Positions 35,269-35,305 of a DNA stretch of 44,283 nt are shown here, one piece after another. The position numbers and the translations under genes are program-made. This DNA is from Escherichia phage CEC_Kaz_2018, in the sequence record NC_073070.1; one strand, 5' to 3'. Every line of letters begins with the position of its first letter. The first letter of the stretch is position 1. The notes beneath the pieces are model-generated. The model worked only from the letters and a program-made list of their open reading frames with translations, searched no databases and was not told where the DNA came from.

Positions 35269-35305
35269 AAAAAAAAGTCCCAGTAAGTTTTAGCTCACTG
35301 GGACT
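35269..35305 (-). terminator. intrinsic terminator whose U8 tract abuts the holin start codon
   Basis: minus strand AGTCCCAGT-12nt loop-ACTGGGACT followed by TTTTTTTT then ATG. Confidence 0.6.

Follow-up and report, generated by a model that had tools for sequence, protein, structure and literature searches.

A terminator hairpin abutting the holin start codon of a Dhillonvirus as candidate translational lock and promoter site

Escherichia phage CEC_Kaz_2018 (NC_073070.1) is represented by a sequence of 44,283 nucleotides, referred to below as the window, which belongs to a Dhillonvirus, a virulent siphophage of E. coli. On its minus strand a hairpin followed by a run of T residues directly abuts the start codon of the holin gene, the first gene of the lysis cassette. 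From its sequence we predict with high confidence that the hairpin and its U tract form an intrinsic terminator that stops RNA polymerase arriving from upstream. With medium to high confidence, RNA folding calculations further suggest that the 3' arm locks a weak Shine-Dalgarno (SD)-like GGGA of the holin gene in read-through RNA. The reading that we prefer, at a probability of about 45%, is that the lysis mRNA would be born at an extended -10 promoter embedded in the edge of the same hairpin, which would then act both as terminator of the early operon and as translational lock.

The minus strand of this region reads TAA (35325-35323) ttatgcaagcgtgatat AGTCCCAGTGAG-CTAAAA-CTTACTGGGACT TTTTTTT ATG (35268), where TAA is the stop codon of the upstream open reading frame (ORF) and ATG the holin start codon immediately after the T run. 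The 12-bp stem consists of the 9 bp given in the initial annotation plus GAG/CTT and contains six G-C pairs. The hairpin alone is predicted to fold at -19.3 kcal/mol, which makes it the strongest of 12 terminator-like hairpins compared in the window, and it was the top-ranked terminator-like site in the window scans. A 76-nt context folds at -22.9 kcal/mol (z = -4.39), a stability that was reached by 0 of 200 shuffled sequences. The features characteristic of an intrinsic terminator occur together here, namely a G+C-containing hairpin followed by a U-rich tract in an intergenic position downstream of a gene on the same strand. A terminator acting on the plus strand was rejected, the stem not being followed by a T tract in that reading. 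The homologous sequence is labelled 'putative transcriptional terminator' in the GenBank record of phage vB_EcoS_WF5505 (MK373790.1). The earlier description of a strong intrinsic-terminator structure whose U tract touches the holin start codon is borne out by the fold, the scans and the conservation described below. As a terminator the element is ordinary and already annotated in one relative.

A leftward array of about 32 kb on the minus strand starts from a divergent promoter region near 40200-40424, from which the rightward replication operon also departs. In leftward order the array comprises the genes for a helix-turn-helix (HTH) protein and a helicase-primase, a series of small ORFs, the hairpin, the holin gene, a second holin-like gene and the lysozyme gene, followed by a small ORF, an HTH-phosphoesterase gene, terS, terL, the head genes and the tail genes. 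The hairpin sits at the boundary between early or replication genes and the lysis and late genes, all of which are co-directional, so that any transcript entering from upstream has to end at the hairpin or pass through it. The terminator scan found no comparable terminator between the holin hairpin and the divergent early promoter region.

The hairpin is embedded in a highly conserved module. All 54 intergenic positions are identical (54/54) to those of Escherichia phage B2, the flanking ORFs being 83% and 90% identical. The module was found in 155 of 155 Dhillonvirus records, with 125 of these reaching 95% identity or more over 64 nt. The main clade varies in the loop, in the length of the T run and at one or two bases upstream of a CGTG sequence. 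In the divergent clade of LM40P1 and L016 (holin 68-69% identical) the loop differs and the stem persists, its 5' arm having gained a C and its 3' arm an A-to-G change. These sequence comparisons indicate that the hairpin module is under selection.

The length of the U tract needs a qualification. The U8 tract reported in the initial annotation is present in the window as T8, with seven residues unpaired, but 29 of 32 related loci have T6, one has T7 and one A+T6, and T8 is limited to B2 and the window. The genome of B2 (MG581355.1, 44,283 bp) is collinear with the window with zero indels and about 9% substitutions, the ORF coordinates in the window are those of the B2 annotation, and the window contains 70 N. 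From these features the window looks like a reference-guided consensus, another Dhillonvirus having been mapped onto B2. In such an indel-free consensus homopolymer lengths such as T8 may therefore stem from the reference. The closest relative of the window, Zar3M (94% identity), has a T6 run.

The 3' arm of the hairpin carries the GGGA at SD spacing from the start codon. Its predicted duplex with the anti-SD sequence has an energy of -3.9 kcal/mol versus a genome median of -5.9, which ranks it 45th of 64 genes and resembles the values for terS and the helicase-primase gene. The homologous position holds GGGG in LM40P1 and GGAGGA in Kagunavirus and Jerseyvirus, and in the relatives solely T residues separate the stem from the ATG, an arrangement that fits a T run doubling as terminator tail and SD spacer. 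The claim that the holin has no SD sequence was accordingly overstated, since the element exists in a weak and buried form, and the SD-independent initiation that had been proposed is not what a G run at this spacing, perfected to GGAGGA in Kagunavirus, would suggest. According to the predicted folding, the probability of the GGGA being unpaired is 0.00 for read-through RNA, as against 0.67 for one that starts at position 35296. For the latter RNA the region from -20 to +10 has an unpaired probability of 0.75 and the 5' untranslated region is predicted to be open. Since the GGGA stays paired in read-through RNA, read-through is disfavoured as a productive route to holin.

Other routes of holin translation were considered as well. 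The window holin starts with MDKINEW..., and the M-D-K N terminus is kept across genera, including Kagunavirus, where the start codon is TTG. Alternative starts were rejected for lack of an in-frame ATG, GTG or TTG near the N terminus. A leaderless mRNA was rejected because the sequence at -12 to -7 before the ATG, GGACTT, is no -10 element. Translational coupling to the upstream ORF was rejected too: its stop codon lies 17 nt from the stem and 54 nt from the holin ATG, which, judging from the size of the ribosome footprint, is probably too distant for a terminating ribosome to open the hairpin.

The holins of Kagunavirus and Jerseyvirus are 45-50% identical to the window holin, and their upstream region is recognisably homologous. 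The module in these phages reads ...TTAGGATAATTCCTA(A/C)CCG TG(C/G)TATCCT CCAG - loop - CTGGAGGAT TCATC TTG GAT AAA. A hairpin of 9 bp in Kagunavirus and 13 bp in Jerseyvirus LSPA1 is present at the homologous place; it lacks a U tract, and the perfect GGAGGA lies in its 3' arm, 6-7 nt from the TTG start. RNAalifold was applied to a MAFFT alignment of the Dhillonvirus, Kagunavirus and Jerseyvirus modules and returned six core pairs, three of them changed on both sides between genera and none broken; the alignment places a one-pair indel differently in the two arms. Because the hairpin is kept in Kagunavirus and Jerseyvirus without a U tract, termination is not the function common to the group. 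On this comparative evidence, what is conserved across the group is that the hairpin occludes the ribosome-binding site of the holin gene, and in Dhillonvirus the added U tract also turns it into a canonical terminator. The conserved Kagunavirus module starts a little upstream of a -35-like TTAGGA and is found behind either of two unrelated genes. In the Pantoea phages Nafs113 and MED16, which encode remoter relatives of the holin, the order is terminator, TATAAT or TGCTATCGT, SD sequence and holin gene.

The initial annotation saw no room for a promoter between the upstream gene and the holin. This did not hold up, since an extended -10-like element, TGATATAGT, overlaps the 5' arm of the hairpin and is conserved across two genera. 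The last three bases of its hexamer TATAGT are the first three bases of the arm. The extended -10 consensus of sigma-70 is TGnTATAAT, of which TGATATAGT matches the TG and five of the six hexamer positions. The element is invariant in 32 Dhillonvirus loci, and 68 Kagunavirus and Jerseyvirus loci have TG(C/G)TATCCT at the same position, with C in 33 and G in 35 of them. Across genera TG, T1, A2, T3 and T6 are fixed and n can be A, C or G. Hexamer positions 4-5, the least constrained positions of -10 elements, differ between genera, being AG in Dhillonvirus versus CC in Kagunavirus, and position 5 covaries with the 3' arm, forming a G-C pair in Dhillonvirus and a C-G pair in Kagunavirus.

A weak -35-like TTTCGA overlaps the last codons of the upstream ORF. 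The corresponding sequence is TTCAGA (4/6) in LM40P1 and TTAGGA (3/6, 17-nt spacer) in Kagunavirus. Standard sigma-70 geometry places the predicted transcription start within the 5' arm, and an RNA that starts there cannot form the terminator hairpin. The need for a promoter follows from the position of the lysis unit, which is bracketed by two strong terminators; the 54 nt discussed here are the sole intergenic space upstream of the holin gene. A promoter downstream of the T tract was rejected: the best candidate, TAAGAT, lies inside the ORF, matches the -10 hexamer at 4/6 positions and is TAAGCT (3/6) in most relatives, and a start driven by it would fall in the holin coding sequence without a downstream start codon, truncating the ORF. 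We also rejected the idea that the -10-like element aids termination by sigma-dependent pausing, since the geometry is a misfit: the pause would come within the loop and precede the U tract by about 15 nt. In Kagunavirus and Jerseyvirus a 6+6 inverted repeat, TTAGGA-TAAT-TCCTAA, lies over the -35-like position; by its sequence it could be an operator for a dimeric regulator.

These features can be combined into the following mechanism for lysis gene expression. The hairpin would stop host RNA polymerase that has transcribed the helicase-primase gene and the small ORFs upstream, and any read-through RNA that leaks past it would carry the holin ribosome site shut in a stem of about -19 kcal/mol. 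Sigma-70 RNA polymerase recognizing TGATATAGT would start transcription at about 35296/35295, inside the 5' arm. Transcripts lacking the 5' arm would escape the terminator, enter the holin-holin-lysozyme genes and present a free GGGA-U(6-8)-AUG initiation region. Holin would in this way be produced solely from transcripts born inside the hairpin and not from early read-through RNA.

Related arrangements of terminators and promoter-like sequences are found further along the leftward array. Downstream, the lysis unit is bounded by the terminator AGCCCGCCGATTTGGTGGGCT-TTTTT, and 8 nt beyond it lies a perfect extended -10 sequence, TGTTATAAT, upstream of terS. LM40P1 has TGATATAAT behind the homologous terminator, though not at the same offset, and in the Kagunavirus Snoke TATAAT follows that phage's own terminator, with the same CCC after it. 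The late programme of Dhillonvirus and Kagunavirus thus appears, from these sequences, to be built from terminators and host-type promoters. A second element like that at the holin gene follows the tape-measure gene. It consists of TGATAAAAT, a hairpin with GGGGG in its 3' arm (predicted SD energy -8.4 kcal/mol) and a T6 run adjoining the ATG at which a minor tail gene starts. The element is kept in LM40P1, where a G.U pair is replaced by A-U. The tape-measure stop codon lies only 6 nt before this stem, which a terminating ribosome could open. A third element, TGATAATAT, precedes the hairpin after the major tail gene and is TGTTAATAT in B2 and TGTTAACAT in LM40P1. Both the second and the third element occur in LM40P1, varying at n and at hexamer position 4. 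An extended -10-like motif adjoins the 5' edge of the stem at three of the seven minus-strand terminators.

We tentatively extend the proposal to these sites: small virulent siphophages of the Dhillonvirus/Kagunavirus group possibly punctuate their co-directional arrays with 'terminate-and-restart' elements in which a host-type extended -10 promoter adjoins the 5' side of a terminator hairpin and transcripts begin within the hairpin. Such an element of about 46 nt would stop upstream transcription, lock the next ribosome site in read-through RNA and launch a terminator-immune, translatable RNA in which the U tract serves again as SD spacer; the tail-tube and tape-measure terminators would be further cases. 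At the holin gene, lysis would come to depend strictly on a single tiny promoter. On the plus strand, the terminators at 5524 and 41041 have a -10-like TATATT that ends 3 nt before the stem, and in Snoke TATAAT is found 2-3 nt before the stem of the capsid terminator. A -10-like element beside a terminator stem may be a general habit, or a by-product of AT-rich spacers and stop codons.

Several observations weigh against an embedded promoter. Genome-wide, 22 extended -10-like matches were found and 22.25 were expected, so there is no enrichment, and the -35 sequence is a poor match with 3/6 in the window. The adjacency at 3/7 terminators has a naive binomial probability of about 3e-7, a post hoc value that ignores local AT-richness and the contribution of stop codons (TGA/TAA). 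Within a genus the intergenic module hardly varies over its entire length, and the promoter argument therefore rests on some three or four independent lineages. A metagenome scan for further lineages returned only those of the Dhillonvirus and Kagunavirus/Jerseyvirus type again, and a scan of genomes for prophages carrying the module found none. Conservation of CGTG could also reflect a modelled weak outer helix, CGUGA/UUAUG, that pairs the start codon. For the Kagunavirus RNA beginning at its predicted start, the unpaired probability of the SD sequence is only 0.17. A constitutive host-type promoter before a holin gene needs some timing control, and no additional control was identified. Finally, we found no promoter, terminator, transcriptome or transcript-end study for Dhillonvirus or Kagunavirus in the literature, where transcription signals are treated as in silico counts for one Kagunavirus only.

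The most serious alternative is that the hairpin is a plain leaky terminator that attenuates the early leftward transcript and of which a small constitutive read-through fraction, requiring no dedicated factor, supplies all mRNA of the lysis cassette. Holin would then be translated inefficiently through breathing of the hairpin and binding of ribosomal protein S1 to the U tract. Such a supply would be adequate for a protein of which little is required, and would work as a slow timer. The canonical features of the terminator, the weakness of the holin SD in any context and the chance frequency of extended -10-like matches are in line with this view. Moreover, the capsid-gene (24369) and tail-tube (21536) terminators in the late operon must leak, because the next SD sequence and ATG lie only about 15-25 nt further on, with no -10-like motif after the T run. 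However, a hairpin of -19 kcal/mol with U6-8 is expected from established knowledge to terminate efficiently, and the holin SD is fully paired in the read-through RNA. A leaky terminator also leaves unexplained the fixed TG-n-TAT..T with variable n across two genera, the Kagunavirus hairpin that has no U tract and the presence of the same motif beside two other terminators. We regard this explanation as rather unlikely. If it were correct, the site would be an ordinary early/late boundary terminator of the kind already annotated in at least one GenBank record.

The model of the initial annotation, in which lysis gene expression depends on regulated antitermination, appears improbable. Here a phage factor or a cis-acting RNA would make polymerase terminator-resistant late in infection, and read-through of this and other terminators in the 27-kb late array would switch on lysis and morphogenesis. 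The location at the early/late boundary of a long co-directional array with about seven terminators does recall the Q-dependent late operon of lambda. A novel factor is conceivable given the many upstream small ORFs of unknown function, and the first leftward gene encodes an HTH or sigma-70 region 4-like protein. We scanned 30 phage proteins, covering both early operons and the lysis unit, against Pfam and PHROG, and none matched an antiterminator family; searching the PDB by sequence with the 101-aa HTH-like protein gave no match either. An Rfam search of the whole window gave 0 matches at gathering thresholds, the presence of a put-type model in the release being unchecked. Lambda-type Q proteins have zinc-binding cysteines; the 177-aa protein encoded upstream of the hairpin has no cysteines and therefore lacks them. 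There is also no promoter-plus-short-leader arrangement upstream of the hairpin, unlike lambda PR'-tR': only 17 nt separate the stop codon from the stem, and the only promoter-like element before the holin gene would start transcription within the stem. Perfect host-type promoters follow later terminators, for example TGTTATAAT before terS, and an antiterminated read-through RNA would still hide the holin SD.

A link of lysis timing to a 'repeat locus B' upstream, also proposed before, finds little in the sequence to recommend it. This locus is probably the region 37097-37617, where two iteron-like arrays lie just downstream of the helicase-primase gene and about 2 kb upstream of the hairpin. 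The first array consists of three GGCAACCAAT(A/G)CG-type repeats with two partial copies, the second of six to seven TGTCCCGC-type repeats, and an AT-rich stretch with TATAAT lies between them. By its sequence the region is probably a replication origin or regulatory hub rather than a nut- or qut-type site. The annotated ORF 37297-37554 overlies the repeats, has no PHROG match and may not be a real gene.

Least probable of all is a purely post-transcriptional operator, in which the hairpin would be a processing site for RNase III or RNase E, with cleavage exposing the initiation region, or a binding site for a phage or host RNA-binding protein that represses or activates holin translation, with termination added by the Dhillonvirus U tract as a secondary feature; the compensatory conservation of the hairpin in Kagunavirus and Jerseyvirus without a U tract and the AU-rich single-stranded stretch just 5' of the stem agree with it, but a stem of 9-13 bp is short for RNase III by established knowledge, no candidate RNA-binding protein was identified and SD sequestration alone suffices to explain the conservation.

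The closest parallel to an embedded promoter is found in phage T4, where the logic has been established by experiment. In the genes e (lysozyme), soc, 49 and I-TevI of T4 a helix hides the ribosome site in early read-through transcripts, and late promoters are located within the DNA coding for the hairpin's 5' strand (PMC3014915); the gene e hairpin was described by McPheeters et al. 1986, as reviewed in the same paper. As in gene e, the lysis gene studied here is downstream of early genes on the same strand, its SD and start region are buried in a stable hairpin of upstream transcripts according to the predicted pairing, a candidate promoter element lies over the 5' strand, from which transcripts would start without that strand and be translatable, and hairpin and candidate element are conserved together in relatives. 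The differences are that T4 uses a gp55-dependent late promoter, TATAAATA, whereas the candidate here is a host sigma-70 extended -10 element, and that gene e encodes the endolysin whereas the gene here encodes a holin. We know of no report of termination by the T4 gene e hairpin. The Dhillonvirus hairpin, with its U6-8, should also terminate, whereas for T4 only a translational block is given (PMC3014915). By analogy, the regulatory design would correspond to the T4 gene e logic with a host-type promoter, a holin as target, a true terminator and a U tract that serves as spacer.

The PR'-qut-tR' region of lambdoid phages likewise has an intrinsic terminator directly upstream of the lysis cassette and a promoter close by. 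It differs in that the scans revealed no Q-like protein in the present phage, that the predicted start inside the hairpin precludes a terminated leader RNA, and that the next operon here has its own host-type promoter. Lambda tR' lies well upstream of S, whereas the Dhillonvirus terminator touches the start codon. A further similarity is to the sdi stem-loop of lambda S, which occludes the SD sequence, tunes holin translation and chooses between antiholin S107 and holin S105. Both are RNA stem-loops that hide the SD at the 5' end of a holin gene. The sdi structure serves a dual start and is not a terminator, whereas the window holin has a single Met start and is accompanied by a separate second holin-like gene.

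The promoter-coupled terminators described in bacteria have a -10 element downstream of the T tract and a transcription start about 10 bp after the termination site, with a peak of the termination-to-start distance at 8-11 bp (Fletcher et al., bioRxiv 10.64898/2026.08.19.745784). In these, as in the phage, adjacent, functionally related units on the same strand share termination and initiation signals within a few dozen base pairs. The holin hairpin differs from this class in that its -10-like element is upstream of the stem, transcription is predicted to start some 25-30 nt ahead of where it would terminate and the ATG directly follows the T run. The terS-proximal terminator (32673-32653) resembles the class, with an estimated termination-to-start distance of about 18-20 bp, which is longer than the peak.

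If the embedded promoter is real, lysis timing would hang on an overlay of terminator, promoter and ribosome site of about 50 nt in a large, therapeutically used group of coliphages, comprising at least 155 Dhillonviruses and, through the homologous module, Kagunavirus and Jerseyvirus. It would provide a handle for engineering latent period and burst size and a compact natural insulator-plus-promoter part for synthetic biology. It would also be a separate instance of the T4 gene e strategy that relies on host polymerase, and suggest convergent answers to the problem of avoiding lysis gene translation from early read-through RNA.

Table 1. Coordinates of the holin hairpin, its associated signals, neighbouring genes and related elements in the window
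Feature	Position	Strand	Description
Hairpin AGTCCCAGTGAG-CTAAAA-CTTACTGGGACT	35276-35305	-	12-bp stem, 6-nt loop; predicted terminator stem-loop
Unpaired T (U) tract	35269-35275	-	7 nt; 8 with the last paired T at 35276
SD-like GGGA	35278-35281	-	In hairpin 3' arm; 9 nt from ATG, 7 nt in T6 relatives
Extended -10-like TGATATAGT	35303-35311	-	Hexamer TATAGT at 35308-35303; putative promoter element
Weak -35-like TTTCGA	35327-35332	-	3/6 versus TTGACA; 18 nt upstream of TATAGT
Predicted transcription start, G/A	35295-35296	-	7-8 nt after the -10 hexamer, within the 5' arm
Upstream ORF	35323-35622	-	99 aa; last gene of the early leftward array
Holin gene	34978-35268	-	96 aa; first gene of the lysis cassette; PHROG 2359 holin, E = 1e-31
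Second holin-like gene	34736-34981	-	PHROG 2508 holin
Lysozyme gene	34258-34749	-	Pfam Phage_lysozyme
Downstream boundary of lysis unit	32634-32673	-	Terminator 32673-32653, then TGTTATAAT at 32642-32634, upstream of terS
Second such element	17745-17786	-	TGATAAAAT, hairpin 17777-17753, GGGGG in 3' arm, T6, ATG (17747)
Third element	21520-21545	-	TGATAATAT at 21545-21537 before hairpin 21536-21520, after major tail gene

The features discussed above are listed in Table 1. The product of the upstream ORF has one predicted membrane helix and belongs to PHROG 2531, a family of unknown function. The first leftward gene (39872-40201, minus strand) carries the label 'DNA recombination nuclease inhibitor gamma' in the B2 annotation, and its product gave HTH_23 and Sigma70_r4_2 matches above the Pfam cut-offs. 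This protein probably binds DNA and regulates transcription, which makes it a candidate for temporal control.

Two further observations concern the structural genes. In the B2 annotation the start codon of the gene at 23829-24359 (minus strand) is an ATG that falls within the loop of the terminator behind the capsid gene (24327-24369). Judged from the sequence, the in-frame ATG at 24329, which has AGGAG 8 nt upstream, is a far more plausible start. Within the tail-gene array a Cor-like superinfection-exclusion gene (PHROG 1119) is located on the opposite strand at 10346-10630 (plus strand) with its own terminator at 10565-10578, and an extended -10-like sequence, TGGTATCAT, is found on the minus strand just before the tail-tip gene.

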